DNA of 64,000 nucleotides from an uncultured Candidatus Saccharibacteria bacterium (GTDB taxonomy: Bacteria > Patescibacteriota > CALEFQ01). The translations under genes and the position numbers were made by a program. Shown here piece after piece: positions 19,419-44,886 of the stretch (the first letter of the stretch is position 1; the number at the start of each line of letters is the position of its first letter). The notes under the pieces are model-generated. The model had not been told where the DNA came from, made no database searches, and saw only the letters and a program-made list of their open reading frames with translations. The DNA lies in contig OZ246404.1 in assembly GCA_965230955.1 (NCBI GenBank), positions 161,184 through 225,183 on the forward strand. The letters are read 5' to 3'.

Positions 19419-19433
19419 CGAACCAAAATAATC

Positions 19434-19942: not shown

Positions 19943-20160
19943 GTAGGAAATATAGTTTCGAAATGTGCTCAGTAAGATTTGTGCGAATGTTGTTGAGCCA
20001 TCCACCGCTACGTTTCGCGTCTGGCGGGAAGCCACTCGGCCTGCCCTCCCGTAGCCCGAGACATCGAGGGCGAAGGAGGGCCAACTCTCCGTGATTAGTC
20101 TTTGGTCGTTAGTCCTTGGCCTTCTGCCAACAGAAGAACAACAAGATTGTAACTATTTGT

Positions 20161-20297
20161 AAGTCAAAAGTCAAAGGTCAAAAGTCGAAAATATCCTAGC
20201 CCGGCTTTCTACCGGCTGATCACGCCCCACCGAAAGCGAGACTTCTTTATAGCCTTGATCGAGTAAAGCTGTCTTCTGACCTTTGACTTTTGACTTA
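20161..20297. repeat. Period-7/8 repeat hairpin, GTCAAAAG family. Its arms are separated by about 80 nt.
   Basis: AAGTCAAAAGTCAAAGGTCAAAAGTCG ... CTTCTGACCTTTGACTTTTGACTT. A GTCTTTGG-type unit sits just upstream (20098..20125). Confidence 0.7.
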
Positions 20298-20963
20298 TTT
20301 CGCACTATGCGCTACCACGATGGCATTAATGCTTTGGGGTTGGCCGTGAGCGAGAGCTTGGGCGCATTCTTGCAAAGTCGCGCCGGTAGTCAGCACGTCG
20401 TCAACCAAGAAAATAGTCTTTCCCTTGATAAGTCCCGGATCAATTAGCTTGAAAGCATCTTTTATATTCTGCTGACGCGCGGCGCGCCGGAGCGACATTT
20501 GTGGTTTGGTGTGCTGAATTCTGGCCAAAGCATTTATTACCATGGGAAATTTATAATGCCGTGCCAGTGCTTGTGCCATTAATTCCGACTGATTGAATCC
20601 TCGTTCTTTCTGGCGGGAGCGATGGAGCGGAACCGGGACAAAAATTGATTCCGGTGGAAACTCTCGCGTTTCCATTCGGGCGATAATTAATTCCGATAAA
20701 CGCCCGGCTAAATCCCGGACCATTTTGTATTTCATGGTATGGATGCTTTTGGCAATCAGCGGATCCAGGTAATCCGCCGCCACGAAAATATCCGTACAGC
20801 CTTTGATTTTTAGCGCGCTCGCTTTTCCGGGCGGAAATGGCGCTATCGTTCGGAGGCAGGCCTGGCAAATCCAGGCGCCTTCTTTTTTGCATCGCAGGCA
20901 CTCGATCGGAAAGAGCAGGTCGAGCAGAAAGCGATAAATCTCAACTAAAAATTTTGGTAACAT
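20295..20963 (-). CDS. comFC: ComF-family protein (phosphoribosyltransferase domain, competence ComFC-like)
   Basis: N-terminal CxxC...CxxC zinc finger, a PRTase fold, and a C-terminal LVDDVLTTGAT motif. Confidence 0.8.
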   Translation of the reverse strand: MLPKFLVEIYRFLLDLLFPIECLRCKKEGAWICQACLRTIAPFPPGKASALKIKGCTDIFVAADYLDPLIAKSIHTMKYKMVRDLAGRLSELIIARMETREFPPESIFVPVPLHRSRQKERGFNQSELMAQALARHYKFPMVINALARIQHTKPQMSLRRAARQQNIKDAFKLIDPGLIKGKTIFLVDDVLTTGATLQECAQALAHGQPQSINAIVVAHSAK

Positions 20964-20974
20964 AAAACCCTCCT

Positions 20975-21011
20975 AAAAATAAGTCAAAAGTCAAAGGTCA
21001 AAAGTCAAAAG
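20975..21011. repeat. GTCAAAAG-family direct-repeat arm. Nested GC hairpins follow it and likely form the clpC terminator.
   Basis: AAGTCAAAAGTCAAAGGTCAAAAGTCAAAAG, then GCCCCGCTTCGCGGGGC and CCGCCGTATCGGCGG. Confidence 0.6.
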
Positions 21012-21098
21012 TTGAGCCCCGCTTCGCGGGGCGAAACCCCGTACCCGAGTCCGCCGTATCGGCGGGCGAGTGGTATGGGGTCAAAAGTGGCGACAGAA

Positions 21099-23726
21099 TC
21101 ACTTTTCTATTTTTACCGCAATCTTGTCATTTTCTTTGACCAGTGTGACTTTGTGGCCGCGGGTGATTTCGCCGGCGAGCAATTTCTCGGCCAGTAAATC
21201 TTCGATTTGTTCCTGGATGGTGCGTCGGATCGGTCGCGCCCCGCGTTTGGGATCAAATCCGATATTGGCGATATGCTGGATCATCGATTGATGCAATTTG
21301 AGCTCGACTTCTTTTTCTTTTTGCAGGCGATCTTGGAGCTGGCTGAATTGCAGGCGCACGATTCGGCGGACAGCATCTCTTGTTAACGGTTTAAAAACCA
21401 GGGTCTTGTCGATTCGATTGAGCAATTCCGGTCGTAACTGTTTTTCCAGTTCGCGTTTGACGTCGCTTTCCAGCGCCTGAAATTCTTCCGGACTGACTTC
21501 TTGTCCCTGCTCTTCTTTTTGGAACCCGATGACGGCGGCATCGGTAAATTCCCGAGTGCCGATATTTGAAGTCATGATTACGATCGTGTTTTTGAAATTT
21601 ACTTTGCGTCCTTTGTTGTCGGTCAGAACGCCGTCTTCCAAAATTTGCAATAAAATATTGAAAATGTCGGGGTGGGCTTTTTCGATCTCGTCAAAGAGTA
21701 CGACCGAGTAAGGCTTGCGCCGGACTTCTTCGGTCAGTTTCCCGCCCTCATCGTAGCCGACATAGCCCGCGGCCGCGCCGACGAGCCGCGAAACGTTGAA
21801 TTTTTCCATAAATTCAGACATGTCGATCTTGATCAGCGCGTCTTCGTTGTTGTAAACCTCGCGGGCGATTACTTTAGCCAGCTCGGTTTTGCCGACGCCG
21901 GAAGGCCCCAAGAAAATGAAAGAGCCCAGTGGCCGGCGGGGATCGCCGATGCCGGCGCGGGCGCGCTTGATAGCGCGGGAAATCTCTCGGGTCGCTTCGT
22001 CTTGGCCGATGACTCTCGTGTTGAGCCGCTTTTCCAGGTCGAGCAGGTTTTTCTGGTTTTCTTCTTCCAGTTCGGCCAGGGGGATTCGCGTCATCGCCTG
22101 GATGACTCGGGCGATATCCAGTGCGGTTATTTTTCCTTGCGGAGTGGCGGTGAATTTTGCCTGCTTCTTTCGCAATTCAGACAATTTTTTATTGGTTTCC
22201 TTTTCGGCCGCCCGAAGGCTGTATGCCGCCTGAAAATTTTGTTGTCCGACGGCGGCTTGCTTGTCTTTGTTTATTTTGACCAGTTGGTCTTGTAATTTTT
22301 TGACTTCCTTCAAAATAGGGGAGGCGGGCAGGTCGATCTTGAGGTGCGAAGCCGCTTCGTCGATCAAGTCCAGGGCTTTGTCCGGCAGAAAACGATCGGG
22401 CAGATAGCGCTCGCTCAGTTTGACGGCGGCCGCGATGGCTTCGGGCGTGATCTCGATTCGATGAAAAGATTCGTAATTCCGGCGCACTCCTTCCAGTATT
22501 TTTTTCGTTTCCTCGGCCGAAGATTCTTCGACCAAAACAGGCTGGAAGCGCCGCTCCAGCGCGGAATCTTTTTCGATGTTTTTGCGGTATTCTTCCAGTG
22601 TGGTGGCGCCGATAACTTTAAACTCCCCGCGCGCCAGCGCCGGTTTGATGATATTGGCGGCGTCCATCGTACCGGCTCCGGCGGTTCCGGCTCCGACGAT
22701 GGTATGGATCTCGTCGATAAATAAAATTATGTTCGGGTCGCGGCAAACTTCCTCGATCACTTGTTTTAGCCGTCCCTCGAATTCGCCGCGGTAAACAGTC
22801 CCGGCGATCAGTAACGGCAGGTCGAGCGTCACTATTCGCTTGTTTTTAAGATAATCGGGGACGTCGTCTTGGGCTATTTTTTTGGCCAGGCCTTCGACAA
22901 TAGCGGTTTTGCCGACACCGGCTTCGCCGATCAGCACCGGATTGTTTTTGGATCGGCGGCCGAGAATGTTGATGATGCGCCTGATTTCCTTGGTCCGGCC
23001 GATTACCGGGTCAACCTTTTTCTGATAGTTGGCGGCGGTCAGGTCTTTTCCGAAGGATTCTAATAATGATTTTTTTTCTTTGGCGTTCATATCCAGCGGG
23101 GCGCCCATCATCGGCATTCCGCCGGGAGCGGGCGGCATCATCTGGTCGTCCATTATTTCTCCGTCGCCCATTTGATTCAGCATTTTAAAAACGTCAGTCA
23201 GAGAAGGAAATTTGGCCGTGCTTTTGAAAACATTGGTCAGTTGCTGCTTGAGGCGGTCGGTGCCGACTTTGGCCTGCTTGAGCAAGCGCTCGGCGCGGGA
23301 GTCTTTGACGGTCAGGATCCCGTAGAGCAGATGTTCGGTGCCGATATATTTGTGTTTGAATTGATAGGCCAGCTGGACCGCGGCTTCCAACGCGCTTTTG
23401 GCTTCCTCGGACAAATTTTTGAAGTCGAAATCCTTAGGTTTGGTCGCCACCCCGCCTTTTTTCACTGGCGGCAGGGGAACATCGCCGCGCGCGGGGTCTT
23501 TTTTCGGCATCAGAAAATTGGCCGCGATTTCTGGGGTGAATTTGAAGCCCATTAAGACTTCCCGGGCAATTCCGCCTTCCTCTTTGGCCAGGCCGTAGAG
23601 GAGATGGGCGGTATCAATAAAATGGTCGCCGGAACGATCGGTGATGTGCTGGGCGCTGGTCAGTACGTGTTTGAGCCGGGTGGAAAATTTATCGCCAATC
23701 GGCTGGGTGGATTGTTTGTTTTTCAT
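21099..23726 (-). CDS. clpC: Class I Clp/Hsp100 AAA+ chaperone (ClpC-like)
   Basis: Clp_N repeats and two AAA+ modules ([31 protein letters not shown]). An IGF-like loop (AVIGFQ) suggests ClpP docking. Confidence 0.85.
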
Positions 23727-23882
23727 AGGTGATAGTTTTATACTTATTAGATAGTATAGAGTACAAAAGGGCGAGAGGCAAGGAGGAAGATAAATCCGAA
23801 ATCCGAAATTCGAAACAAATACAAAATTTCAAACCATAATATCAAAACTTTAATAATTTAGGGCTTCGGATTTAATAACTTT

Positions 23883-24371
23883 ATGGACGATCAATATAAA
23901 AAAGCTAAATTATCGGCTATCCGTTTCCTGGGATTCCGATCGCAGACGGTCGCGGAAATGCAACAGAAATTAACGCGCCAGGGTTTTGACCAGCGGACGG
24001 TCTTGCAAGTGGTCAATGAATTGCGCAATACCGGCTATCTCAATGACGAGCGCTTTACCCAGGAATTTATCCGCTACCAGCTGATGCGGAAGCCGACGGG
24101 GCGTTTTCTGATGACGGCCAAATTAAAAGAGCATGGCGTCAGTGAAGACGTGATTAATCGTATCATCGCCCGGGAATTATCCGAGGATAAAGAAAAAGAG
24201 CTGGCACTGGCGGTAGCCGAAGAAAAAAAGAAGGAATTGCGCATTAAATTAGCGAAGCTTTCTTCGTTGCAAAAACAAAAAATCGGGCAATACCTCAGTA
24301 GCCGTGGCTTTGCTTCGGACGTAGTTTGGGAAACGATTGACTTGCTCGATAAAGGAGGGAGGGAGTGGTAA
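23883..24371 (+). CDS. recX: Recombination regulator RecX
   Basis: Three-helix-repeat architecture. Motifs FLGFRSQTVAEMQQKL and LRNTGYLNDERF. Confidence 0.75.
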   Translation: MDDQYKKAKLSAIRFLGFRSQTVAEMQQKLTRQGFDQRTVLQVVNELRNTGYLNDERFTQEFIRYQLMRKPTGRFLMTAKLKEHGVSEDVINRIIARELSEDKEKELALAVAEEKKKELRIKLAKLSSLQKQKIGQYLSSRGFASDVVWETIDLLDKGGREW

Positions 24372-24377
24372 GAAATA

Positions 24378-24540
24378 ACAAATAACCAATCACAAATATC
24401 CAATAAAATCCAAACTTGCTTGCGCAAGCAAGCTCCAATTACAAATAATCGCTTAGATATTGTAAATTGAATTTTATTTGATATTTGTGATTGGTTATTT
24501 GTTATTACTTTTAGTGTATAACCCGATTGCGCTTGAGGGG
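24378..24540. repeat. Long palindrome of the AATAACAAATAACCAAT family
   Basis: AATAACAAATAACCAATCACAAATATC ... GATATTTGTGATTGGTTATTTGTTATT. Related copies lie at 63085..63225 and 63815..63935. Confidence 0.7.
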
Positions 24541-24602
24541 TAAAATATGTTAAAATAAATAGAGTTAAAAAGGTAAAAACACCCCAATATTTGGGGTAAG
24601 TT

Positions 24603-27600
24603 TTGGCTAAAATGCCCGTGCCTAAAAGCAATTGGCCCATCAAAAAGACTACCGTGGTCCTCATCGCGACGGTAGCTTTTATTATTTCGGCGGCGATTTT
24701 ACTGCCTAATCGGGAAATTATCCCGACTTATGCCGCCGGTGGCGAAATGTCAGTGACGCTGGAGGGTTACTGGTGGGCACCGAACGGCGGCTGGATTAAT
24801 TTACAATGGGATACTGTTGGAGAAAACGGTGTTCGGGTTGATAAAAGCTCTTTTACCGGCAAACCATTCTTTGATGGTTTTGCTTGGGGACCGAATATCG
24901 GCTGGATCAGTATGCGCGATACTTCCGGCGCCGGCCAATATGGGGTAGTAGTGCGTGAGCCGATAAATCCTACGCCGGCCGGTGGCGTCTGGCATGTCGA
25001 TAATTATGCCTGGGGTCCGAATATTGGCTGGTTGAATTTTGACGCTATTGATAGCGGAGCAAATTCGGCCCAACAGCCTCGGATAGTGATGGAAAATTTG
25101 GGAGTACCCGGATCGGAGGTCTCGGAAGACGCGCGCCTAAAAGGCTATGCCTGGTCGCCGAATATCGGATGGATCAAATTGGATTCCGATTTGCCGGGCT
25201 GGAAAGATACAAACGATCCGGTGCTGAAATATTTCGATGTTTTGCCGGAAGTCATGCCGCCTTTGCCTTCAGAAAAATACGCGTCCGGGGTTTATAAAGA
25301 CAGTTATGATTGCTGTGGCGGAACATTGAATACTTTCGCGGCCGGCCACATGGTGTGGGTGCGCCCGGCGGTGGAATTCAAAGCAACCATGCATAGCCAG
25401 GACAATCGTACGCGCTGGCACGATTTGAATATTTCCGCGGTGACTGCCAATCCCCAGACGATCCCGGAGCTCTATCTTTGGAAAGATCGTTTGCGTTTTC
25501 GGCCGGGACTAGAGCCGTCCTCGATTGGAAATGTGAACGCGTATGATGCCGCGCTGAATGAATTCTTGCCCAATCCCGATTTTGCCGCCGGATCTAATCC
25601 CAATGTGCCGATGACTGGGGGAGAGGTCAAGGTGCCGTCAGAAGAAGACATCAATGGCGACGGCAAAAACGAAATTATTTGGAAAAGCACTTCACATTTC
25701 TTGTCAGGCACGCCCGGAGCGAATAATTATGTTTTACGTGAATTCCGATACAATGTTCGCGATGCTGGTGGTAATTATGCTTGTCCCGACGCGGAGCCGG
25801 CGACCTTTGATTGGAGTACTGGACAGGGCTGTATTATTCCGAGTTTACCTTCGCCCTATAGCCCAATGACCGGGCGGGTGGGAGTGGCCGTGGATAAAAT
25901 CCAGCCGTCCGGATCGCTCTTTATCAATGATACCGAATTTACCGAATCAGAGACGGTCAAGGTCAGTGCCACGGCCAAAATAGATTTCAAGGTGGAATAT
26001 ATTGATACCGAATCTGGATCGTATCACGTGATTTTGGATTATCGGCGCAAAGCCGGTAATGCCTGGCCGCTGGTTTGGAGCGATCCGATCGGTGAGCGCC
26101 GCTGGAATCTAGGCCGGGAAGCTGTCACTTGGAATATTGATGGCAACATTGACCTGGGAGCGGAAACCGAAAAAGAAACTCCGCTAAATACCAGCGACTG
26201 GGCTGACGGGCAGGAATTCCAATTGCGTTTGCGAGTGATTGATAATGTTGGCAATGTACGAGAGCGAATTTTGCCGGCGGTGATCAATCGGACTCCGCCG
26301 ACGGGAGTATTCACCGCCGCTGATCCGATTGATCGCGATCCAAACCGGACGCGCTATGACGCGGTGGATTTGTATTTACCGCCCAGCGCGACCATTAAAA
26401 CTATGCAATTTGCGAATACCCCTGATGGTTTCGGAAGTGAATTTGAACCGTACCCTTGGTTGAACGGTGGCTGGAGGGAGGGTCACTGGTCGCTAGAAAT
26501 TGTCCAAGGGGAAGAAGTTACAGGTGGCCTGAAATCCATCTACGCCAATTTCTGCGACGGGACTATTCCCGAGGCGGTATGTACCCATGACCAAAATAAA
26601 GAAATAAAGGCTCAAATTGCCGCCCCGTGGTTTGAAGGAGCGCAGGGCGATGTTTATGCCGGGTCGGGGATCGGGACGCGCAGTGCCCAGTTCAACGGGA
26701 TCGCACCGTATTTGACTGTCGGCGTCCAGAAATATAACGCCACTTACCGGATCACGTCTGACGGTGAGATAAAACCTCAGATCACTTCGGAGCGCGGCTG
26801 GTCCGAAGGGGACTACCAAAATTTTGGTTATCCCGGGATAGGTGGCACCATCGCGCCGATCGATTTTGAATCCCTCCGGCTTCAGGCCGATATTCAGACG
26901 GATGATGAGATTGCTCAGGCGGGGGAATTAGATTTCACTCAGAGTACCAACGGAATAATTTTATTACAAAGCGGCTCGTCGAAATCGGATGCGTCTTTGG
27001 GAAGCAACGGGGACCGATTAATAGTCCGCGGAACCGGCACCTTGCTGGTGGATGGCAATCTGCGAATTTTAAAAGATTTATACTATGCCGATTCATTGGC
27101 GGATCAACCCACTCCGGAAATTGATTCCATGGCGGTTTTGACGCGCCGGAGTAGTGCGGATTCACGGGGCAATGTTTATGTCGGCGAAAATGTTCGCCAT
27201 ATGGTCGGCGCCTACATCGTCGGCTTAGGCAATTGTTTTCAGGCTAAATGTCCGAATGACTCGCTGGGAACCGGAGTTTTCCATTCTTCCGCCGATTTCT
27301 CCGCCGGTATCGGAACTGATCCGAATCTAAAAGCCTCGAAATACGAACTGGTGGTCGAAGGCATGGTGGCCGCGCGCGATTTTGATCTGGGGCGATATAG
27401 TACCGGCAATCAGAATTTCCTTACTAACGCCGATCTCGAACCGAGCGTCTCTGAAGTTCCCAAGAGTTGTTTGGTCGGTTGGACTTGTGACCCGGCTGAT
27501 CCTAATATATTTCAGGCCAGTGACAAAGATGTCGTATCGGGCAAGCAAAAACTGCAAATATCACTCAAACCGGGCCAAAAGGGTAATTTGTTGCAGTCTA

Positions 27601-28034
27601 ATATTTTTATTAACCTCCAGGGAGAATCAACTCTGAGCTTGTCGGGATATTTACGGTCGACGATTGCCGGTTTACCGGTGCCGCAAACCATTGATTTGGC
27701 GATTGGCGGGCAAACTTGTACGTTACAACCATCGGATATCGATTCTCAATGGCGGCGATTTCAGTGTTCGGTCAAGGTATTGGGCGAAGCCAAGAGTATT
27801 GATTTGCGGATAACGGCGATTAATTTTTTGAAGGAAGACGGTTTCACCCTGGACCTTGATGCCCTACAGTTGGAAGCCGGCAATGAAGCGACGGAGTGGC
27901 ACAATAAGTTTGAAGGCGATACCAATTATATGGCTTCGGAGCGTTTCTATTACGATGGCCGAGTGATCTTGAATACTCCACCGGGATTGGCGTCTTTGAC
28001 CAGTCCGGCCTGGGGAGAAACGATCGCCGATTAG
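24603..28034 (+). CDS. Giant secreted/membrane-anchored repeat protein (1143 aa) immediately upstream of the pilus operon
   Basis: N-terminal TM, then tandem WGPNIGWI-containing repeats (AWGPNIGWISM, AWGPNIGWLNF, AWSPNIGWIKLD), and a long beta-rich C-terminal region. Confidence 0.7.
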   Translation: MAKMPVPKSNWPIKKTTVVLIATVAFIISAAILLPNREIIPTYAAGGEMSVTLEGYWWAPNGGWINLQWDTVGENGVRVDKSSFTGKPFFDGFAWGPNIGWISMRDTSGAGQYGVVVREPINPTPAGGVWHVDNYAWGPNIGWLNFDAIDSGANSAQQPRIVMENLGVPGSEVSEDARLKGYAWSPNIGWIKLDSDLPGWKDTNDPVLKYFDVLPEVMPPLPSEKYASGVYKDSYDCCGGTLNTFAAGHMVWVRPAVEFKATMHSQDNRTRWHDLNISAVTANPQTIPELYLWKDRLRFRPGLEPSSIGNVNAYDAALNEFLPNPDFAAGSNPNVPMTGGEVKVPSEEDINGDGKNEIIWKSTSHFLSGTPGANNYVLREFRYNVRDAGGNYACPDAEPATFDWSTGQGCIIPSLPSPYSPMTGRVGVAVDKIQPSGSLFINDTEFTESETVKVSATAKIDFKVEYIDTESGSYHVILDYRRKAGNAWPLVWSDPIGERRWNLGREAVTWNIDGNIDLGAETEKETPLNTSDWADGQEFQLRLRVIDNVGNVRERILPAVINRTPPTGVFTAADPIDRDPNRTRYDAVDLYLPPSATIKTMQFANTPDGFGSEFEPYPWLNGGWREGHWSLEIVQGEEVTGGLKSIYANFCDGTIPEAVCTHDQNKEIKAQIAAPWFEGAQGDVYAGSGIGTRSAQFNGIAPYLTVGVQKYNATYRITSDGEIKPQITSERGWSEGDYQNFGYPGIGGTIAPIDFESLRLQADIQTDDEIAQAGELDFTQSTNGIILLQSGSSKSDASLGSNGDRLIVRGTGTLLVDGNLRILKDLYYADSLADQPTPEIDSMAVLTRRSSADSRGNVYVGENVRHMVGAYIVGLGNCFQAKCPNDSLGTGVFHSSADFSAGIGTDPNLKASKYELVVEGMVAARDFDLGRYSTGNQNFLTNADLEPSVSEVPKSCLVGWTCDPADPNIFQASDKDVVSGKQKLQISLKPGQKGNLLQSNIFINLQGESTLSLSGYLRSTIAGLPVPQTIDLAIGGQTCTLQPSDIDSQWRRFQCSVKVLGEAKSIDLRITAINFLKEDGFTLDLDALQLEAGNEATEWHNKFEGDTNYMASERFYYDGRVILNTPPGLASLTSPAWGETIAD

Positions 28035-28084
28035 CTTTCGCGCGCCAGTCGAGTGTGGTATAATAACAAGCACTAATTTAGTTT

Positions 28085-29158: not shown

Positions 29159-29163
29159 TCTAC

Positions 29164-29243
29164 AGTCTTTGGTCTTTGGTCTTTAGTCTTTAGAAGTAGG
29201 GGATTCTAAAGGCTGGTGACTAATAACTAATAACTAATTTATG
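29164..29243. repeat. GTCTTTGG-family period-7 repeat. The partner arm is degenerate and TAATAAC-rich.
   Basis: GTCTTTGGTCTTTGGTCTTTAGTCTTTAG ... CTAAAGG ... TAATAACTAATAACTAA, between pilM and pilN. Confidence 0.6.
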
Positions 29244-29888: not shown

Positions 29889-29915
29889 TCGATATATTTC
29901 TAAAAATATAAATAT

Positions 29916-30476: not shown

Positions 30477-30493
30477 AAATCTAAAATAAACAT

Positions 30494-30769: not shown

Positions 30770-30774
30770 TTATT

Positions 30775-32583: not shown

Positions 32584-32587
32584 AAGG

Positions 32588-32654
32588 GTCTTTGGTCTTT
32601 TGTCTTTAGTCTCGGCTAAAGACAAAGGACTAAAGACTAAAGACTAAAGACTAA
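32588..32654. repeat. GTCTTTGG-family period-7 inverted-repeat hairpin between pilB and pilT
   Basis: GTCTTTGGTCTTTTGTCTTTAGTC tcgg CTAAAGACAAAGGACTAAAGACTAAAGAC. Confidence 0.75.
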
Positions 32655-32657
32655 TTT

Positions 32658-33731: not shown

Positions 33732-33752
33732 TCAACGACGATAATAAGTATC

Positions 33753-33830
33753 AGGTAACATGTAACAAGTAACAAATAGGAAATTATCTATTCCATTTTG
33801 TTACCTGTTCCCTGTTACTTGTTACTTGAA
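33753..33830. repeat. GTAACAAG-family period-7 inverted-repeat hairpin between pilT and pilC
   Basis: GTAACATGTAACAAGTAACAAATAGGAAA ... TTTGTTACCTGTTCCCTGTTACTTGTTAC. Confidence 0.75.
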
Positions 33831-33838
33831 TACTCCAT

Positions 33839-35047
33839 ATGCCTATCTACAATTATCGCGCGAAAACTTTTAAGGGCGAAGTCCAGGCGGGGACCGTGGA
33901 TGCCGCCAGTCCGCAATCCGCGGCTGACGTGTTACGCAGCCATAATTTGGTCGTGGTGGAATTAAACGAAGAAGGCACGCAAGCCGGTCTACAGAGCCGT
34001 CTTAAGATTTTTGACCGGGTCCATCCGCGCGATATCGTGATTTTTTCCCGGCAACTCTCGACTATGATTTCCGCTACTTTGCCGCTGGTCCAGGGTTTGC
34101 GCGTCTTGTCTGAACAACAGCAAAATCCTCTTTTCAAAAAAATAATGGAAGATATTACCGCCCGGGTTGACGGCGGAGCGCGCCTGTCGGTGGCGATGAA
34201 CCAGTATCCGGATACTTTTTCCAATTTTTTTGTCAGCGTGGTGCAGACGGGGGAGACCAGCGGTAAATTGGATGAATCGCTGAATTACCTGGCCGATCAG
34301 CTGGAAAAAGACTACGACCTGACGTCGAAAATTCGCTCGGCCATGTATTACCCGGCCTTTATCCTCGGCGGGATCGTGGTGGTGGCGATTATCATGGTGA
34401 CGTATGTCATCCCGCAATTGGAATCAGTGCTGATCGGCATGCAGGCGAATCTGCCCTGGTCGACCAAAGCTCTGCTCGGCGCCAGCAATTTTTTCCGCGA
34501 CTATTGGTGGATCATTTTGATCGTCGGCGTTTTGATTTTCTGGTGGCTTCGATCCTGGAGCCGGACGATGGATGGGAAGCGGAAACTGGATCAAATGAAA
34601 CTGAAATTGCCTATTTTCGGCAAGCTTTTTCGCTGGGTCTATATCACCAGAATGTCGCGCACTCTCTACACCTTGCTCGTCGGCGGAGTGAAAATCATTG
34701 AAGCGCTCGGCGTCACGGCTTCGGTTATCGGCAATTCGGTCTACAGTGATATCATAAAAAAAGCGGCTCAGCGCGTGGAATCCGGCGATTCGATCTCGAC
34801 CGTCTTGCGCCAGGAAAAGGAAGTGCCGCTGATGGTCTCGCAGGTGATCGAAGTGGGGGAGAAAACCGGCAAACTGCCCTTTACCCTGCAAAAAATTTCC
34901 GAATTCTACGGCCGAGAGCTGGATAATGCCGTCAAAGGCTTGTCCTCTTTGCTGGAGCCGATAATTATGGTAGTATTAGGCATCGGTGTCGGGATTCTCA
35001 TGGCCGCTGTTATTATGCCTATCTACAATATTAGTTCGATGATGTAG
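33839..35047 (+). CDS. pilC: Type IV pilus platform protein PilC (GspF family)
   Basis: Two T2SSF repeats and three TM segments. Confidence 0.9.
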   Translation: MPIYNYRAKTFKGEVQAGTVDAASPQSAADVLRSHNLVVVELNEEGTQAGLQSRLKIFDRVHPRDIVIFSRQLSTMISATLPLVQGLRVLSEQQQNPLFKKIMEDITARVDGGARLSVAMNQYPDTFSNFFVSVVQTGETSGKLDESLNYLADQLEKDYDLTSKIRSAMYYPAFILGGIVVVAIIMVTYVIPQLESVLIGMQANLPWSTKALLGASNFFRDYWWIILIVGVLIFWWLRSWSRTMDGKRKLDQMKLKLPIFGKLFRWVYITRMSRTLYTLLVGGVKIIEALGVTASVIGNSVYSDIIKKAAQRVESGDSISTVLRQEKEVPLMVSQVIEVGEKTGKLPFTLQKISEFYGRELDNAVKGLSSLLEPIIMVVLGIGVGILMAAVIMPIYNISSMM

Positions 35048-35490
35048 TAACAAGTAACAGGTAACAGAGAACAAGTAACAAATCGGAAAACTATTAATAT
35101 AAAAGGGAGGGATATGAGGGAGGGGATTAGGTTTAGAAGCAGAAAATTTGCTTTGATGGTCATAAGGCTGGTGGCAGATTTCTTAAAAAACAAAGAAGCA
35201 TATATCATTGGCAGTCAGTTGATCCGATCGGCGACATCTATCGGCGCTAATTTGGCGGAAGCGTATGTGGCACGTTCCCGTTCGGAATTTCGGAGTATAA
35301 ATAATATTGCTCTTCGCGAGAGCGAAGAAACTAAGTACTGGTTGGAACTAGCCCGAGATGCATTTCTCGTCGACGAATCAAAGCTTGCCCCGGTTCTCCG
35401 AGAGGCTAAAGAAATTTGCAAAATCTTGGCTACAATTGTTATAAAATGTAAAAACTAATTCCTATTTGTTACTTGTTACATGTTACTTGC
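35047..35490. mobile_element. Candidate cassette: a four-helix-bundle protein gene bracketed by GTAACAAG-family inverted repeats, inserted between pilC and pilA.
   Basis: Left arm GTAACAAGTAACAGGTAACAGAGAACAAGTAACAAATCGGAAAA (35047..35095). The right arm is the reverse complement, GCAAGTAACATGTAACAAGTAACAAATAGGAATT (35457..35490). The same arm pair with only a 20-nt loop occurs at 33753..33830. Confidence 0.45.
35114..35458 (+). CDS. Four-helix-bundle protein (23S rRNA intervening-sequence protein / Avd-like family)
   Basis: LIRSATSIGANLAEAYVARSRSEFRSINNIALRESEETKYWLELARDA matches the hallmark region of this family. Confidence 0.8.
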   Translation: MREGIRFRSRKFALMVIRLVADFLKNKEAYIIGSQLIRSATSIGANLAEAYVARSRSEFRSINNIALRESEETKYWLELARDAFLVDESKLAPVLREAKEICKILATIVIKCKN

Positions 35491-35534
35491 TTTTAAATGA
35501 TGTTTAAATAAAATTATGGAAAGGGGGTGAGTCT

Positions 35535-35960: not shown

Positions 35961-36101
35961 GTTTATAGTTTGCTGATCTACCCCCACGCTCGAAGGTCGA
36001 GAGTGGGGGCGATGAGCAAATATTATTATCGCGGGAGCAATGTTAACTTCGGCGGAACTCGATCCGCCGAAGCCCCGTTTCGGGGCGAAGGTAGATAAAT
36101 T

Positions 36102-36887
36102 ATGATCTCGCTTTGGTCAGTTATCGTTTTTTTTCTCGGCCTCTGTGTGGGCAGTTTTTTAAATGCGCTGATTTTTCGGCTACATTCCGGCGAATCGGTG
36201 GCTAAGGGGCGCTCGAAGTGCCCCAAATGCCAACACCAACTCAGTGACTGGGATTTAATTCCGGTCATTAGCTTTATCGCCCTGCGCGGAAAGTGCCGTT
36301 ATTGCCACGCCCCGATTTCTTGGCAGTACCCGACAGTGGAATTGGTGACGGCGATTTTATTTGTCCTGGTCTATCTGTATCTGATACCTTCGACGCAAGT
36401 TGGGACGATGACCGGGATTTTTTATTTGGCCTTTCTTTGGTTTATCGTCAGTGTGTCGATTATCGTTTTTGTCTACGACCTGAAGCATTACTTGATTCTC
36501 GACAAAGTCATTTATCCCGCTCTGGCGGTGACTTTTATCGCCGTTTTATTTTTGCCGCAATTTGATTTTTGGCGCGCGCTGATCGGGAGCGGGGTGGTTG
36601 GCGGGTTTTTCCTAATTTTGGTATTATTATCAAAAGAGACTTGGATGGGTTGGGGGGATGTGAAGCTGGGATTTTTGCTGGGCTTGGTGGTCGGCTGGCC
36701 GCTCTGTCTGCCTCTGTTCTTGATCGCTTTCGTCGGCGGCTCGGCCGTCGCGCTTCTCCTGATGGGTCTGAAACTAAAAGGCTGGAAAGACTCGGTGCCG
36801 TTCGGCACGATGCTCACTGCGGCAGCGGTGATAACACTATTTGTGGGGCAAAAATTGATTGATTGGTACTTTGGACTATTGGTATAA
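36102..36887 (+). CDS. pilD: Prepilin peptidase PilD (A24 family)
   Basis: Tetracysteine CPKC...CRYC, a DUF1232-like N-domain, and A24 peptidase TM helices. Confidence 0.9.
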   Translation: MISLWSVIVFFLGLCVGSFLNALIFRLHSGESVAKGRSKCPKCQHQLSDWDLIPVISFIALRGKCRYCHAPISWQYPTVELVTAILFVLVYLYLIPSTQVGTMTGIFYLAFLWFIVSVSIIVFVYDLKHYLILDKVIYPALAVTFIAVLFLPQFDFWRALIGSGVVGGFFLILVLLSKETWMGWGDVKLGFLLGLVVGWPLCLPLFLIAFVGGSAVALLLMGLKLKGWKDSVPFGTMLTAAAVITLFVGQKLIDWYFGLLV

Positions 36888-36889
36888 GT

Positions 36890-36960
36890 TAAAAGTCAAA
36901 AATCAAAAGTCAAAAGTTTCTTGTTGCTACTTTTGACCTTTGACCTTTGACTTTTGACTT
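36890..36960. repeat. GTCAAAAG-family period-7 inverted-repeat hairpin between pilD and the minor pilins
   Basis: AAGTCAAAAATCAAAAGTCAAAAG tttcttgttgctac TTTTGACCTTTGACCTTTGACTTTTGACTT. Confidence 0.75.
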
Positions 36961-37542: not shown

Positions 37543-37543
37543 T

Positions 37544-38110: not shown

Positions 38111-38111
38111 A

Positions 38112-38172
38112 AGAGTCTTTGGTCGTTGGTCTTTGGTCTTTCGCGAAAGACTAAAGACTAAAGACTAAAGAC
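38112..38172. repeat. GTCTTTGG-family period-7 inverted-repeat hairpin between minor pilin genes
   Basis: AGTCTTTGGTCGTTGGTCTTTGGTCTTTCGCGAAAGACTAAAGACTAAAGACTAAAGAC. Confidence 0.75.
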
Positions 38173-38174
38173 AG

Positions 38175-38705: not shown

Positions 38706-39597
38706 GATAAAGTCAAAAAATAATCGGCGGGAACGAGGCATCACTTTGGTGCTGGCTTTACTGCTTACCGGCACCGTGACGGTGGCGGCTTTGATTGTCG
38801 CCGGCTTGCTGGTACGGGAGTTGCGTTTGACGGACAATATCCGCAAATCGTTGATCGCTTATTATGGAGCGGAATCCGGTTTGGAATCGGCGCTGTATGA
38901 CTATTATCACGGCGGTGTCGTGGAGACTCAATCCGGCGACGTGGGCAAGGTGGCCAGTTGGGAGATTAATTCCAATCCCAGCCAGACGGAAATGGCCGTC
39001 CCGCTGCCTTGGGAAACGACCAAAGAAATACCGTTGTATGATCTGGACGATTCCAGCTCGTTTAATGTTGCCGCAATTAATTTCAGTTGGCTAGAAAGTG
39101 TCTCAAAACCTATTGATCTGGAGTGGACGATCCTCACCCTGAGCCGGGATGGTACCGGTACCTGGCTGGAACCGGGTCCGCGCGGTTCGAAAATTACCAA
39201 GGATATTATCAATTGCCAGTTGGCGGTGGCCGATCAGACGACGATAAAGTTGTCTGATTATGACTTGGCTCCGGGTGATCAGCATATTTTGCGATTCAAG
39301 CATGTCAATGGGACGGGCAGCACGGTTGATTTCCGGATCACCATGACGGACGAAAAGGGAAATGAAATTGCTTTCAATCAGCAAACCGCTTTGAAAGTGA
39401 CCGGTACGGCGGGGGGAGTCGGGGGCGATGTCAGTCGGGCGCTGGAGGTGGCTATCCCGCTCAAGTCGCCGGCCTATGATGTTTTTGATTATGTTATTTT
39501 CAGCGATACTTATGTGGGAAAAGATTACAGCACTATGACTCCTTTCCCGTCTATTACTCCATTGCCGACGCCGACCGGGATCCGACCGAGACCGTGA
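38698..39597 (+). CDS. PilX-like pilus assembly protein
   Basis: N-terminal ERGITLVLALLLTGTVTVAALIVAG pseudo-prepilin segment. It overlaps the upstream gene by 8 nt. Confidence 0.65.
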   Translation: MNKIKSKNNRRERGITLVLALLLTGTVTVAALIVAGLLVRELRLTDNIRKSLIAYYGAESGLESALYDYYHGGVVETQSGDVGKVASWEINSNPSQTEMAVPLPWETTKEIPLYDLDDSSSFNVAAINFSWLESVSKPIDLEWTILTLSRDGTGTWLEPGPRGSKITKDIINCQLAVADQTTIKLSDYDLAPGDQHILRFKHVNGTGSTVDFRITMTDEKGNEIAFNQQTALKVTGTAGGVGGDVSRALEVAIPLKSPAYDVFDYVIFSDTYVGKDYSTMTPFPSITPLPTPTGIRPRP

Positions 39598-39621
39598 AAT
39601 TGCTGATTAGGCATTGACATA

Positions 39622-39667
39622 TAAAAACAGGTGCGGCCTGCCGAATCGGCAGGCCGCACCTGTTTTG
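39622..39667. terminator. Bidirectional Rho-independent terminator
   Basis: AAAAACAGGTGCGGCCTGCCGAATCGGCAGGCCGCACCTGTTTT between convergent genes. Confidence 0.75.
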
Positions 39668-39676
39668 GTATCGTGA

Positions 39677-40513
39677 TTATTCCGCCACGGTTTTCAGCGA
39701 GACATAGTGATTTTTGTACGTCTCGGGGTAGACATCGACTTTCAGGTAGTGATTGTCGGGATCGAGTCCGAATTGGGGGCTGGAGCCGCCGCCGCCCGTG
39801 ACGACCACGGGAATGCCGCTCAGTTCATAATTGAGATAGCCGTGAAAATGGCCGGTGTAAATCTGATTTACTTGGTAGCGCCGGAGGATTTCAATAAATT
39901 TATTGTTTTGGACGGTGGCGGTCTCGTTGGTTTCGGAAGAATCGCTCAGCGGCACATTGATGGGGACATGCATCACCAAAAACTTCAGTTTTTTATCGGT
40001 TTTTTTCAAGTCCGACTCCAGCCACGACAGTTCGGCATCGCTGAAACTGTTTTTTTCATCCGTGCTTTCAAATATAGTGATATGACTGTTTTGCCAGTCG
40101 AAAGATTCTTTGGTGGCGCCGAAGGTTTGAGTGAAAGCGGCGTCCGTTCGCTGGCCGGTTTTATCAACCACGTAATCATTATCGCCGATGGCGACATAAT
40201 ACGGTTTATCCAAATGCCGGTCGAGGTACTTTTTTGCCGCCTGCAGGTCGGTCAGGCTTTTGCCGTCGGTGATGTCGCCGGTGCTGATCAGAAAAGAGAT
40301 GTCGGGATTTCCCGCTTCGGCGACAATTTTTTCGAAAATCGGATTGATGGTGCCGTTATCGCCGTAAACGATAAAAGAAAACAACGGCTCGCCTTTGGGA
40401 GTGGCAGAGGCGGTCAAATTCGATAAATTTAAAACACTATCATCCTCGGTGCAAGCGCTGAAACCGAGCACGGTTATGAGCAAAAGTGTCAGTAGAAGAA
40501 GCTTTGATTTCAT
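39677..40513 (-). CDS. Calcineurin-like metallophosphoesterase lipoprotein
   Basis: MKSKLLLLTLLLITVLGFSAC lipobox. Motifs GDNG, GDITDG, GDNDY and GHFHGY. The longer finder ORF extends into the repeat hairpin and lacks an RBS. Confidence 0.8.
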   Translation of the reverse strand: MKSKLLLLTLLLITVLGFSACTEDDSVLNLSNLTASATPKGEPLFSFIVYGDNGTINPIFEKIVAEAGNPDISFLISTGDITDGKSLTDLQAAKKYLDRHLDKPYYVAIGDNDYVVDKTGQRTDAAFTQTFGATKESFDWQNSHITIFESTDEKNSFSDAELSWLESDLKKTDKKLKFLVMHVPINVPLSDSSETNETATVQNNKFIEILRRYQVNQIYTGHFHGYLNYELSGIPVVVTGGGGSSPQFGLDPDNHYLKVDVYPETYKNHYVSLKTVAE

Positions 40514-40529
40514 GGGGGGAATTGCTATA

Positions 40530-40635
40530 ATAAGTAACAGGTAACAAGGAACAAGGAACAAATAGGAAAAGATTCATTCCAATTTGTTACCTGTTACCTG
40601 TTACTTGTTACCTGTCATCGTTACCGGGTACTTGC
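40530..40635. repeat. GTAACAAG-family period-7 inverted-repeat hairpin
   Basis: GTAACAGGTAACAAGGAACAAGGAACAAATAGGAAAAG ... TTTGTTACCTGTTACCTGTTACTTGTTACCTG. Confidence 0.75.
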
Positions 40636-40666
40636 TATATTACCTGATCTCTCGGATTTTTCAACC

Positions 40667-42748: not shown

Positions 42749-42977
42749 TTTTGCATTTCTAAAAAGCGTAATGGACTTACCGCCGCGTCGGCGCGAGCGG
42801 CTTTTGCGTCTATTTGCCCGGCATCCCGATTTGCAGATTTCAGCGGCCAAGCTTTTTGATGACAAGGTACGCCTGCAAAAAACCGATGAGCCGATGCTGT
42901 CCGAGAAAATACTCACGGCCGAGCGCGAGACGATCGATAATATCCTTAATCAAAAGGCGGACCATGGCGGAAAGTGA
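42741..42977 (+). CDS. Small hypothetical protein (78 aa) overlapping the ligA stop (ATGGATGA)
   Basis: The ATG overlaps the ligA stop, as in translational coupling. Its content is charged and helical. The only support is the ORF and its position. Confidence 0.35.
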   Translation: MDDFAFLKSVMDLPPRRRERLLRLFARHPDLQISAAKLFDDKVRLQKTDEPMLSEKILTAERETIDNILNQKADHGGK

Positions 42978-44478
42978 ATTTTCTCCGGATGAGCAAAACG
43001 AGCGGCGGGAAAACCCGCTCGGTGATTTAGCGCAAAAAGAAACGGCGTTGCAGTCGGAAATATCCGATTCTTTGGCGCGACCTGCCTGGGAGCGTGGTCC
43101 GAATAAGTCTCGCTGGGAAAAAGCGGTGGCTCTTTCCTCGATGTTGTTTTTATATGGTGTGACGACCGAAATGGCGTCGAATTATGTTGCGGCTCAAAGC
43201 GCCAACCAAATTGAGACAACCGTACCGGCCGATTCGAAATCAGCCGAGGAACGTCTGGTGCCCGAGCAACCGGCGATGAATCGGGAGCTTGATCCCGATA
43301 CCAAAACAGCGTTGGCGGCAATATTGTCTCACAATAATGGCGAACATCCGGGCTTGTTTGTGAAAATGATCAGTCCCGAGGCGGACTTTCTTGACTTGGA
43401 CACACGGCAATCTCATAGTTACGACAAGAAAGATTTGGCGAATATTTCAAGCCCCTTGGATTTGCCGGCGGAACAGTTAGACTCGGTTTCATTTTTTTTG
43501 AAATATGCCAAAGATCAATGGGAGGCGCAGAACACGGGTCAGACGCACGCCAACAGGGGCGAGGGAGAATCGGTGGTGGTAAATCGCGCGAAAGATAAGT
43601 ATAATAACACCTTGATCCGATCGTATCGCGTAAATGATGCCGACAATACCGTCAGCGAGTATATCAGTATTAATCCGCCGTTTCTGGGCGCTGAGCCGGA
43701 GCAGGCTCAGCCTCAGCCCTGGAATTTCGATTTGAGCCCCTTTGGCTTACCCGAGGTCAAAGGTCTGTTGGATATCCGTCCTTGGCCGAAGAATAGAAAA
43801 ATCGGGGAGTACGATTTATATACCCAGCAGCCCGGCAAGGAATTATCGGAAACCCAGCTTCAGTGGCTGACGGAAGTCGGTCGGGGACAAGAAGCGGCCG
43901 AAAAATTATTTGGCGCCAAAGCCGGGGAGCAGGTAAAGAATATGCTTCTGATTCATTCCGAGGAAAAACACGGCGAAGCGGAAGGATATTTGCTTGATGA
44001 TACGACTATATATTCCGACACTCTGATGGATACCGAAAATCGAAATGTTCAGCTGATCGGGGCGCATGAAGCTTTCCACGTTATCGGCAAAAACCTGGAA
44101 TTGAGCGATCAGGGAATCGAGAATGAAATCTCAAAATTTTACTACCAGGAAATGTTTACGGATTTTCTGCCCAAATTAAGTGAAAGCAATTTCGAAAAAG
44201 GGCTGGAGGAAACCGAATACGGTCACGCGCAAGATAATCCCGAGGAATTATTTGCCAGCCTGCTTAATTCGGTACGCAGTGAAAATTGGACGGAACGAAT
44301 GGCTCAGGCGGACCCGGAGTTTCGGCGTCGATATGTAGAGGCCTTGCAGGCCGTGACGCGCGATGTGAAGAAGTGCAAAAAAGTCAGTCCTTCCGCTCCG
44401 TTGCTGAAACTCTTGAAGCAAAGGATCTCGGCTCTGGCGCCCGCTTCGCCCAAACCGGCGGTTGCTCAGCCTCAATGA
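42964..44478 (+). CDS. Hypothetical protein with an HExxH motif (possible zinc metallopeptidase-like)
   Basis: The start at ATG 42964 (MAESEFSP) follows AAGGCGGA. GAHEAFHVIG contains HEAFH. Confidence 0.5.
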   Translation: MAESEFSPDEQNERRENPLGDLAQKETALQSEISDSLARPAWERGPNKSRWEKAVALSSMLFLYGVTTEMASNYVAAQSANQIETTVPADSKSAEERLVPEQPAMNRELDPDTKTALAAILSHNNGEHPGLFVKMISPEADFLDLDTRQSHSYDKKDLANISSPLDLPAEQLDSVSFFLKYAKDQWEAQNTGQTHANRGEGESVVVNRAKDKYNNTLIRSYRVNDADNTVSEYISINPPFLGAEPEQAQPQPWNFDLSPFGLPEVKGLLDIRPWPKNRKIGEYDLYTQQPGKELSETQLQWLTEVGRGQEAAEKLFGAKAGEQVKNMLLIHSEEKHGEAEGYLLDDTTIYSDTLMDTENRNVQLIGAHEAFHVIGKNLELSDQGIENEISKFYYQEMFTDFLPKLSESNFEKGLEETEYGHAQDNPEELFASLLNSVRSENWTERMAQADPEFRRRYVEALQAVTRDVKKCKKVSPSAPLLKLLKQRISALAPASPKPAVAQPQ

Positions 44479-44511
44479 TAGACCTCTCCCGATTATTGTG
44501 TTAAAATCACG

Positions 44512-44814
44512 TTGATGACAAAAAAAACCCTTACCATTGCCGAAGTCGAACACGTCGCCAAGCTGGCTCGGATCGAGCTTAGTGAGAGCGAAAAGAAAAA
44601 GTTCCAGCAACAGATGGCGACGATTTTGGATTATATCGATAAAATAAACGAAGTCGATACCGAAAAGGTGGAGCCGACTTGGCAGGTGACCGGCCTGGAA
44701 AATGTCCAGCGTCCGGACAAAGCGCAGGTTTTTATGGAAAACGAACGTTTGATTGACGCGGCTCCCGATAGCCAGGACCAACAGATCAAGGTTAAGGCGG
44801 TTTTCAGTAAGTAA
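44512..44814 (+). CDS. gatC: Glu-tRNA(Gln)/Asp-tRNA(Asn) amidotransferase subunit C
   Basis: IAEVEHVAKLARIELSESEKKKFQQQMATILDYIDKINEVDT, the typical GatC sequence. Confidence 0.85.
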   Translation: MMTKKTLTIAEVEHVAKLARIELSESEKKKFQQQMATILDYIDKINEVDTEKVEPTWQVTGLENVQRPDKAQVFMENERLIDAAPDSQDQQIKVKAVFSK

Positions 44815-44816
44815 TA

Positions 44817-44886
44817 AGTCAAAAATCAAAAGTCAAAAGTTAAGGACGATTCACTTTTGACTTTTGACTTTTAACTTTTGACTTTT
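44817..44886. repeat. GTCAAAAG-family period-7 inverted-repeat hairpin
   Basis: AAGTCAAAAATCAAAAGTCAAAAG ... CTTTTGACTTTTGACTTTTAACTTTTGACTTTT. Confidence 0.75.

Follow-up and report, generated by a model that had tools for sequence, protein, structure and literature searches.

Heptamer-armed hairpins at the gene junctions of a Saccharibacteria pilus locus, probable intercistronic relatives of 23S rRNA intervening sequences

Analysis of a 64,000-nucleotide stretch of contig OZ246404.1 (positions 161,184 to 225,183, hereafter the window) from an uncultured Candidatus Saccharibacteria bacterium of the Candidate Phyla Radiation (CPR) revealed that the gene junctions of its pilus locus are filled with hairpins whose arms consist of tandem 7-nt units. 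The window contains one complete cassette (35046-35489), in which a gene of the PF05635 family lies in the loop of such a hairpin, and at least 12 copies without an open reading frame (ORF), in four sequence flavours, this CPR genome having filled its cistron junctions with the ORF-less form. The gene, here named 4HB after the four-helix bundle that it encodes, is carried as cargo by one hairpin and marks the entire class as a family, an identity of gene and hairpin in which we have high confidence. In 75 loci analysed, it is bracketed in most cases by inverted heptamer arrays, in ordinary operons, and the heptamer-armed architecture spans at least five phyla. With slightly better than even confidence, we read the hairpins as cassettes of the intervening sequence (IVS) type located between cistrons, one with and at least 12 without an ORF, and probably cut by RNase III.

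A first-pass annotation, made from the letters of the window alone, had described period-7 hairpins of at least three flavours at gene boundaries. Tandem Repeats Finder and our own scan recovered arrays at every position that it named, and its three flavours, with 2.9 to 5.6 units per array, were correct; a fourth (AAATAAC/AATCACA/AATATCC) is added here (Table 1). At a score of at least 11, the window harbours 18 strong period-7 arrays and none with a period of 5, 6, 8, 9, 10 or 11. In 100 simulated windows under a first-order Markov model, such arrays averaged 0.01 and never exceeded 1. The hairpins sit exactly at gene boundaries, as had been claimed, all 18 arrays being intergenic in a window of which 13% is intergenic (binomial P = 1.7e-16). 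A complementarity search showed that the arrays pair as inverted arms, most pairs forming stem-loops of 22-30 bp that occupy the entire intergenic gap: the stem begins 0-13 nt after the upstream stop codon, and the start codon that follows is inside it or 0-10 nt beyond it. The predicted RNA folds range from -26 to -60 kcal/mol, with z values of -5.4 to -10.5 relative to dinucleotide shuffles. Because a hairpin is the same on both strands, the orientation of its arms relative to transcription, proposed earlier as a check, carries no test. An Rfam scan of the window matched only tRNAs, and no family for any hairpin.

The 4HB gene (35114-35458) encodes a protein of the '23S rRNA intervening sequence' family (PF05635, E 4.7e-23; TIGR02436, 'four helix bundle protein', E 2.8e-27), of which the closest solved homologue is PDB entry 2rld (E 6.6e-18), and the family profile also matches 2gsc (Xcc0516). 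It had been listed as a neighbour of hairpin copies at pilC/4HB/pilA; a hairpin is present there, as a single one rather than two, with GTAACAA arms on both sides of the gene, which is cargo within it. The arms are 31-39 nt long and 74-97% complementary and, like the terminal inverted repeats of an IVS, can form a long stem; the cassette reads ...CAAATCGGAA, a 26-nt leader with a Shine-Dalgarno sequence followed by the ORF, then TTCCTATTTG... The ORF has the orientation of pilC and the pilin gene; an ORF of this family in the loop, sense to the host transcript, is another feature of IVSs and one that the ORF-less copies lack. Strong Shine-Dalgarno sequences of the GGAGG type are confined to the 4HB and major pilin genes (35089-35113 and 35505-35534, versus the other gene starts), and genes starting directly after hairpins, together with several others, have none. 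With a ratio of nonsynonymous to synonymous divergence (dN/dS) of 0.07-0.13, 4HB is under purifying selection, and its dS resembles those of pilC and pilT, which makes it a functional and long-resident gene. Its residues Q35, R38, T41, S42, E72 and W76 are conserved and do not vary with the heptamer unit.

The ORF-less GTAACAA hairpins of the window (33742-33828 and 40528-40615), like two others in the related locus L133, follow the pattern ...CAAATAGGAA-N6-8-TTCCnATTTG... Since they have the same arms and the same inner GGAA/TTCC junction as the 4HB cassette, they represent the same element, in which a loop of 6-8 nt replaces the leader and the ORF. This sharing of ends recalls MITEs (miniature inverted-repeat transposable elements). 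Over 31 nt, the left arm of the pilT/pilC hairpin (33752-33782) shows 97% complementarity with the arm located 3' of the 4HB gene. A second MITE-like correspondence concerns the AAGTCAA hairpin at 44816-44886, whose loop ends match the AAGTCAA-armed 4HB cassette of locus L003. No second 4HB copy was detected in the window by a six-frame search with hidden Markov models, and no remnants of the 4HB ORF were found in the long loops of ORF-less hairpins.

The families had been called genome-specific, which does not hold, as loci L003, L133 and L135 share the flavours and the architecture reaches other phyla. In a metagenomic survey of 80 loci encoding homologues with 34-50% identity (75 unique ORFs, flanks of 130 nt), 47 of the 68 upstream flanks and 41 of the 72 downstream ones contained a period-7 array, no other period between 4 and 12 was seen in more than two flanks, and the inverted-repeat score between the two flanks exceeded that of shuffles in most loci. 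Of the 43 loci with arrays on both sides, 19 have a 3' unit that matches the reverse complement of the 5' unit exactly and 38 one that matches it with at most two mismatches, compared with 0.8% and 25%, respectively, in the between-locus null; 35 different units occur among these 43 loci. The upstream arm is purine-rich in 46 of 51 loci, and the gene is co-oriented with its upstream neighbour in 51 of 57. Heptamer arrays are 10- to 17-fold enriched beside the 4HB gene. At more than 400 nt from it, 4HB-bearing loci contain 0.29 arrays per kb; the window as a whole contains 0.375, whereas related pilus loci without the gene (801 kb) contain 0.055, with no excess over periods 6 and 9.

The cassettes lie in ordinary operons, among them helicase/methylase, cas2/cas1, ftsX and 2-oxoacid oxidoreductase operons, and in a tRNA cluster; of 20 metagenomic cassettes sampled, none lies in rRNA. 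In the distant Patescibacteria locus L032, a 4HB gene of 38% identity lies between TAATTCA arrays and their complement. Beyond this phylum, the gene is framed by (AAGTCGG)4 ... (CCGACTT)5 on plasmid pNPUN01 of Nostoc punctiforme, by AATCCCC/AATCGTA arms on a Planktothrix plasmid and by GAAGGAT arms on a Chlorohelix (Chloroflexota) plasmid; a Treponema saccharophilum plasmid shows the same heptamer-arm arrangement, and in Bernardetia (Bacteroidota) the gene is flanked on each side by a less strict repeat about 14 nt in length. Nostoc and its relatives account for 20 of the 37 records of plasmid homologues, and one Nostoc cassette is bounded by a non-periodic inverted repeat of 45 nt. In locus L091 (2862-3467), a 4HB cassette is inserted between two co-oriented tRNA genes, i.e. 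within a stable-RNA precursor other than rRNA. Loci L143 (Anabaena cylindrica pANACY.01), L144 and L145 carry 4HB cassettes between cas2 and cas1 or, in operons resembling restriction systems, between helicase and methylase genes, and the 23S_rRNA_IVP genes published as 'CRISPR-associated' are probably such cassette insertions.

With regard to evolution, the first-pass annotation had proposed a comparison of related genomes. Hairpins persist at orthologous junctions in close relatives, with exchanges of flavour. At the pilC/4HB/pilin site, the arm unit is GTAACAA in the window, in L135 and in L133 (4HB proteins 85% and 76% identical to that of the window), AAGTCAA in L003 (61%) and AAGGCAA in L136 (58%), and both arms switch unit jointly every time, though 350-450 nt apart. 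ORF-less hairpins are also kept at the same junctions, with flavours that can be swapped between relatives: the pilT/pilC junction carries GTAACAA in the window and L133, and AAGTCAA in L003, of which PilT is 93% identical to that of the window; the pilD/minor pilin junction (not covered in L003) carries AAGTCAA in the window and GTAACAA in L133; and the pilB/pilT junction carries GGTCTTT in all three. Further away, L004 (PilC 69% identical) has no 4HB gene in the locus and possesses period-9 hairpins (TTAGAACAA) at pilM/pilN and pilC/pilin (1003-1097 and 7145-7257), and relatives with about 45% PilC identity are mostly hairpin-free. The distance between units is 0-1 in 25 of 25 pairs with at least 75% identity between 4HB proteins, has a mean of 2.3 between 60 and 75% and becomes random under 60%; as it tracks protein divergence, units drift one substitution at a time, each change extending over both arms. 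Unrelated flanks surround cassettes that share a unit and encode proteins 78-88% identical, so that the cassette relocates, arms included. No polymorphism in unit copy number was seen among near-identical contigs from different samples. The closest PilC relatives in genome collections belong to metagenome-assembled CPR genomes. In other respects, L001, L002 and L132, assembled independently from short reads of the same population and 100% identical to the window, end inside hairpins (at window positions 36958, 29213, 35489 and 36920).

IVSs with an S23p ORF occur in the 23S rRNA of Leptospira, Coxiella burnetii, Brucella and Haemophilus, and cleavage of IVS stems by RNase III has been shown experimentally in Coxiella, Leptospira and Salmonella. 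In the C. burnetii IVS, an S23p (PF05635) ORF lies in the loop above a 28-bp terminal inverted-repeat stem that RNase III cuts in vitro, and three to four tandem GACAGAT heptamers, variable in number between strains, precede the ORF, the first of them marking the site of the 5' cut (PMC4990558). The same ORF is found in rRNA insertions of CPR bacteria (bioRxiv 10.1101/2024.02.27.582315), and PF05635 genes have been noted within cas operons (PMC3936711). The cassettes described here resemble 23S IVSs in having a member of this family in the loop, a terminal inverted-repeat stem of more than 20 bp and an ORF in the sense of the host transcript, and the Coxiella IVS in having tandem heptamers in the stem 5' of the ORF, in the window arms as in the 47 of 68 metagenomic flanks. 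They differ in lying between protein-coding or tRNA genes instead of in helix 9, 25 or 45 of 23S rRNA and in being mostly ORF-less, and, unlike the Coxiella ORF, which is decaying and probably untranslated, 4HB is preceded by a strong Shine-Dalgarno sequence and subject to purifying selection. We class the elements as an intercistronic variant of S23p-type IVSs, probably working like them; being located outside rRNA, they are not strict members of that class.

In this reading, the cassette would have no promoter of its own and be transcribed by read-through from the host operon, and each copy is predicted to fold into a near-perfect stem of 22-30 bp. RNase III may then cleave this stem as it does in 23S rRNA IVSs, a step in which we place moderate confidence by analogy; cleavage would split the polycistronic RNA at gene boundaries and free a 4HB message with its own ribosome-binding site. 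The arrays would evolve by slippage, and complementarity between the two arms is presumably maintained at the DNA level, for instance through template switching or gene conversion. Phage T7 early mRNA has RNase III sites between its cistrons, and the hairpins resemble these in punctuating a polycistronic transcript at gene boundaries without terminating it; the T7 sites differ in being single, non-repetitive, bulged and immobile stems without a link to a gene family. In the window, a side observation relates to the same question: the HD/gatA gap (45555-45644) contains a near-perfect stem of 36 bp (-57 kcal/mol) with neither a 7-nt period nor a T tail, and long stems at cistron junctions are therefore not confined to heptamer arms. 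Because of this stem and of the non-periodic Nostoc inverted repeat, the long stem is suggested to be the functional common denominator, the heptamer periodicity reflecting how the arms are generated.

Several results weigh against this IVS-like reading. An RNase III signature motif was absent from the window and all fetched loci, which says nothing about the genome as a whole. Selection on the RNA stem is not apparent in the mismatches, G.U exceeding A.C without significance (18 versus 12 in the short hairpins, 137 versus 111 in the cassette stems), nor in folding, as the sense fold is the stabler one in 10 of 19 hairpins and 37 of 66 cassettes, i.e. without general bias. A clear sense-strand bias is seen for the GGTCTTT/AAAGACT flavour alone, in which each unit has one G.U pair and the sense fold is stabler by 7-15 kcal/mol in 6 of 7 copies. 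This flavour is pyrimidine-first, a polarity opposite to that of nearly all 4HB cassettes, so that its descent from a 4HB cassette is not shown. Furthermore, the window has one 4HB gene per 64 kb to set against four flavours, and no recombinase able to move cassettes was found among its approximately 50 ORFs by Pfam. As to a MITE-like nature, target-site duplications are not recognisable within tandem heptamers and the 4HB cargo has no known catalytic function; relocation itself is observed. The mismatch and folding pattern fits arms that are remade as complements by a DNA-level process and then decay neutrally.

Two of the functions first proposed, RNA-processing element and mobile hairpin of the repetitive extragenic palindrome (REP) or MITE kind, both remain viable, with evidence bearing on each. 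According to the second, the hairpins would be purely DNA-level selfish palindromes comparable to MITEs or REP doublets (REPINs), spread and homogenised through hairpin or cruciform intermediates and gene conversion between copies, any RNA effect being incidental; we regard this as the less probable account, though one with appreciable weight. It accommodates the relocation of cassettes between unrelated contexts, the swapping of flavours at orthologous junctions in genomes with 90-93% identical PilT, the assemblies that break within hairpins, the missing overall sense-strand advantage and mismatches resembling neutral decay, with G.U close to A.C and many transversions. The methylpurine glycosylase gene of the window offers a further argument, as a heptamer tract has invaded its coding region in frame: two tracts (left arm plus AAA(A)GGAA) encode GNKEQVTKRK and SNKEQGTSNKRE, both falling in loops that vary in comparison with human AAG, and since three units equal seven codons, heptamer arrays are able to invade coding sequence. 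As in the systems of REPs or REPINs and the REP-associated tyrosine transposase (RAYT), the palindromes are short, intergenic, numerous and divided into several families, one gene being flanked. This gene encodes a four-helix bundle without known catalysis and not an HUH Y1 transposase, and the arms are made of 3-5 tandem units hypervariable between lineages, unlike REPs, which follow a conserved family consensus and have no tandem periodicity inside. The RAYT/IS200-like HUH transposase that had been proposed as a search target is missing among the approximately 50 window ORFs, in which Pfam detected no transposase, recombinase, reverse transcriptase or RNase III domain either. The DNA-level account also sits poorly with the persistence of hairpins at the same junctions across lineages with dS >1, with the strong co-orientation of the 4HB gene and its upstream neighbour, and with the systematic sense-strand G.U pair of the GGTCTTT flavour.

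Heptanucleotide repeats near genes have been described elsewhere. The short tandemly repeated repetitive (STRR) sequences of cyanobacteria, reportedly presented by Mazel et al. in 1990, are said to form intergenic families of tandem heptamers, with several units per genome, and to have been described as direct tandem repeats used for fingerprinting; we found no description in the literature linking them to a gene family or a hairpin architecture. Heptamers of Xanthomonas (GGGAATC) and Nostoc (GGGGA(T/C)T), typically in about four copies, were interpreted by Rehm et al. (2015, PMC4692102) as G-quadruplex formers, with no mention of PF05635 or Xcc0516; those of Xanthomonas form 70-75 convergent inverted pairs, lie between co-oriented ORFs less than 50 bp from start or stop codons and are transcribed. 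The arrays of the window share with them the tandem 7-nt units and the intergenic position near start and stop codons, and the AATCCCC arms of the Planktothrix 4HB cassette are the complement of the Nostoc GGGGATT, whereas the units of the window are A+T-rich and unable to form quadruplexes. The TAACTGA direct repeats of Beggiatoaceae, Cyanobacteria and Bacteroidetes comprise 2-6 heptamers ending a few nt from start codons, the genes 3' of them lack a Shine-Dalgarno sequence and in-frame copies occasionally occur in ORFs (MacGregor 2015, PMC4679880). Our arrays show these three features as well, and differ by their inverted arms, hairpin architecture, associated 4HB gene and variable unit between loci, TAACTGA being one unit across taxa, almost always direct (a single inverted example), with no hairpin or associated gene reported (PMC4679880). 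The literature searched yielded no statement of a general flanking of PF05635 genes by inverted heptamer arrays, nor of ORF-less copies at operon junctions, and the general association appears undescribed; the sole precedent that we found is the heptamers noted in the Coxiella IVS.

A more speculative proposal, to which we give a low probability, is that PF05635 pentamers and inverted heptamer arrays constitute one self-contained system, in which every subunit of the ring would read or template a single 7-nt unit of the folded RNA or DNA, the ring then protecting, moving or regenerating the cassette. This might possibly proceed via an RNA intermediate, by analogy with Avd and its reverse transcriptase in diversity-generating retroelements. 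Avd is a remote PF05635 homologue with the same pentameric four-helix-bundle fold (PMC10053308), and, like 4HB, is encoded between two repeats, the variable (VR) and template (TR) ones, which, unlike the cassette arms, are direct, about 130 bp long and not heptameric. Searches of the PDB with a single 4HB protein or its profile retrieved no Avd entry, and no reverse transcriptase is present in the window. If such a system existed, one gene family would explain much of the excess of bacterial heptanucleotide repeats; the cyanobacterial STRR, Xanthomonas GGGAATC, Beggiatoa TAACTGA and Coxiella IVS repeats would share one source, and rRNA IVSs would merely be the most visible landing site of the family.

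The arrays could otherwise be RNA or DNA binding sites of the pentameric 4HB protein, which would then be the effector in place of RNase III, an idea that we find improbable. Gene and arrays co-occur tightly across phyla, an array has 3-5 units while the closest solved homologues (2rld and 2gsc) were deposited with five chains, and Xcc0516 has been described as a homopentameric toroid (PMC4990558). The correlation between unit distance and protein divergence (0-1 at 75% identity or more, random below 60%) would be expected from binding, and common descent accounts for it just as well; in the window, four unrelated flavours stand against a single 4HB gene, and the conserved residues cited above remain constant whatever the unit. 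Similarly improbable in our view is that the hairpins act as devices of translational coupling or occlusion, which would fix the ratios of pilus subunits. Stems spanning the full gap between stop and start codons, one of which (36886-36960) includes both the stop codon of pilD (UAA) and the next AUG, would suit this role, as would the missing Shine-Dalgarno sequence of genes right after hairpins, given the strong ones of 4HB and the major pilin. Genes without an upstream hairpin, such as pilO, equally lack one, most related pilus operons (L005-L050) have no such hairpins, and some copies separate divergent genes (40528-40615), follow the final gene of a unit (20160-20297) or adjoin tRNA genes (19227-19338; L091), while the link with the 4HB gene is left unexplained. 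The attenuator setting subunit stoichiometry that had been suggested finds no specific support, the major pilin gene being preceded by the 4HB cassette and having its own strong Shine-Dalgarno sequence. Finally, it is very improbable that the hairpins are intrinsic terminators or attenuators, or meaningless products of chance slippage, despite their stable stems at gene ends and the statement attributed to Mrazek (2007), as cited in PMC4679880, that heptanucleotide repeats are the commonest long simple repeats of bacteria, since a terminator scan called none of them among 36 terminator-like sites of the window (few G-C pairs, no T tail), in agreement with the first-pass view that they are not simple terminators, and slippage alone accounts neither for arrays that are complementary across 350-450 nt nor for the 10- to 17-fold enrichment beside one gene family. 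Ordinary terminators with a G+C stem and a T run are used elsewhere in the genome, and the one that closes the pilus cluster (39619-39671) is clearly unlike the heptamer hairpins.

The IVS-like cassettes bear on two questions. Tandem heptanucleotides have been known as the commonest long simple repeats of bacteria since 1990-2007 and remained unexplained, and their origin and the function of the gene family both become experimentally testable. In practice, the stems fragment metagenome assemblies and may define the segmentation of operon mRNAs in organisms with minimal genomes, and PF05635 genes in cas or restriction operons should be read as inserted cassettes rather than as components of these systems.

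Table 1. Heptamer hairpins, arrays and related tracts of the window
Feature	Position	Strand	Remarks
In-frame GTAACAA-type tract (left arm + AAAAAGGAAAA)	12496-12540	+	in methylpurine glycosylase gene
Second in-frame GTAACAA-type tract	12736-12780	+	same methylpurine glycosylase gene
Looser A+T-rich copies	19227-19338, 57800-57915, 62517-62637		
AAGTCAA/TTGACTT hairpin, 88-nt loop	20160-20297	.	just 3' of comFC (- strand); 25-nt arms, 96% complementary; -59.5 kcal/mol, z -8.0
Lone AAGTCAA array, 4.6 units	20977-21012	.	comFC/clpC gap; complementary to 20270-20300 across comFC
G+C-rich nested hairpin	21013-21080		after the lone AAGTCAA array; followed by one more GTCAAAAGT unit
AAATAAC/AATCACA/AATATCC hairpin (fourth flavour)	24370-24510	+	recX/ORF1143 gap; 44-nt arms, 93% complementary; -56.8 kcal/mol, z -10.5
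GTCTTTG.../...ACTAATA hairpin	29164-29238	+	fills pilM/pilN gap; -29.8 kcal/mol, z -5.8
GGTCTTT/AAAGACT hairpin	32587-32654	+	fills pilB/pilT gap; z -8.3; same flavour at orthologous site in L003 and L133
ORF-less GTAACAA/TTGTTAC hairpin	33742-33828	+	pilT/pilC gap; apex CAAATAGGAA-N8-TTCCATTTTG; z -5.5
5' arm of ORF-bearing cassette	35046-35088	+	GTAACAA units, end AAATCGGAA; repeat and complementarity search
4HB gene, 114 aa	35114-35458	+	in cassette loop; PF05635, TIGR02436; GGGAGGG Shine-Dalgarno 5' of it
3' arm of cassette	35459-35489	+	TTCCTATTTG then TTGTTAC units; begins right after 4HB stop codon
AAGTCAA/TTGACTT hairpin	36886-36960	+	pilD/minor pilin gap; -36.1 kcal/mol, z -8.5; GTAACAA flavour at L133 orthologous site
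GGTCTTT/AAAGACT hairpin	38115-38172	+	minor pilin/minor pilin gap; -35.2 kcal/mol, z -8.0; same flavour at L133 orthologous site
GTAACAA/TTGTTAC hairpin	40528-40615	.	divergent phosphoesterase/ligA gap; apex CAAATAGGAA-N8-TTCCAATTTG; z -7.5
AAGTCAA/TTGACTT hairpin	44816-44886	+	gatC/HD gap; z -6.3; loop ends equal inner ends of L003 4HB cassette
AAATAAC-flavour hairpin	63086-63200	.	one side of membrane-protein ORF; complementarity search
AAATAAC-flavour hairpin	63806-63925	.	opposite side of the same ORF; complementarity search

The gene names given earlier were confirmed by Pfam, which identified comFC, clpC, recX, pilM, pilO, pilB, pilT, pilC, pilin, pilD, minor pilin, phosphoesterase, ligA, gatC, HD protein and gatA genes. 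Two of the copies reported at these genes had to be redrawn. At comFC/clpC, an array is indeed present, as one arm with a G+C-rich insertion behind it, and the complement of this arm lies on the other side of comFC; a pattern search for this insertion as a repeated family matched itself alone. The copy said to follow the phosphoesterase gene exists, and lies upstream of it, towards the divergent ligA, the true start of the phosphoesterase being the ATG at 40513, ahead of a lipoprotein signal peptide. The TTGACT boxes of the AAGTCAA arms resemble -35 elements; they were rejected as promoters, as a single copy has a matching -10 box and the other flavours have no such box. The pair at 63091-63924 was likewise rejected as a second cargo-bearing cassette, since it consists of two separate complete hairpins around the membrane-protein gene.

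Other G+C-rich palindromes of the window, which may represent a second class of small inserted element, are located in the pilin/pilD gap (35975-36095, conserved in L003 at 4179-4233) and at 19085-19130 and 19377-19422, beside two tRNA-Ser genes between which the A+T-rich hairpin of period about 7 (19227-19338) is found. The first part of the window (1-12400) is tightly packed with large genes without a Pfam match, two genes resembling pilins of type IV secretion systems (T4SS) and a RadA-like gene, and, unlike the pilus cluster, it contains no heptamer hairpin. The first gene of the pilus cluster, an ORF of 1143 aa without a Pfam match (24603-28034), adds a large uncharacterised component to this CPR locus, at a position conserved in L133 and L001.

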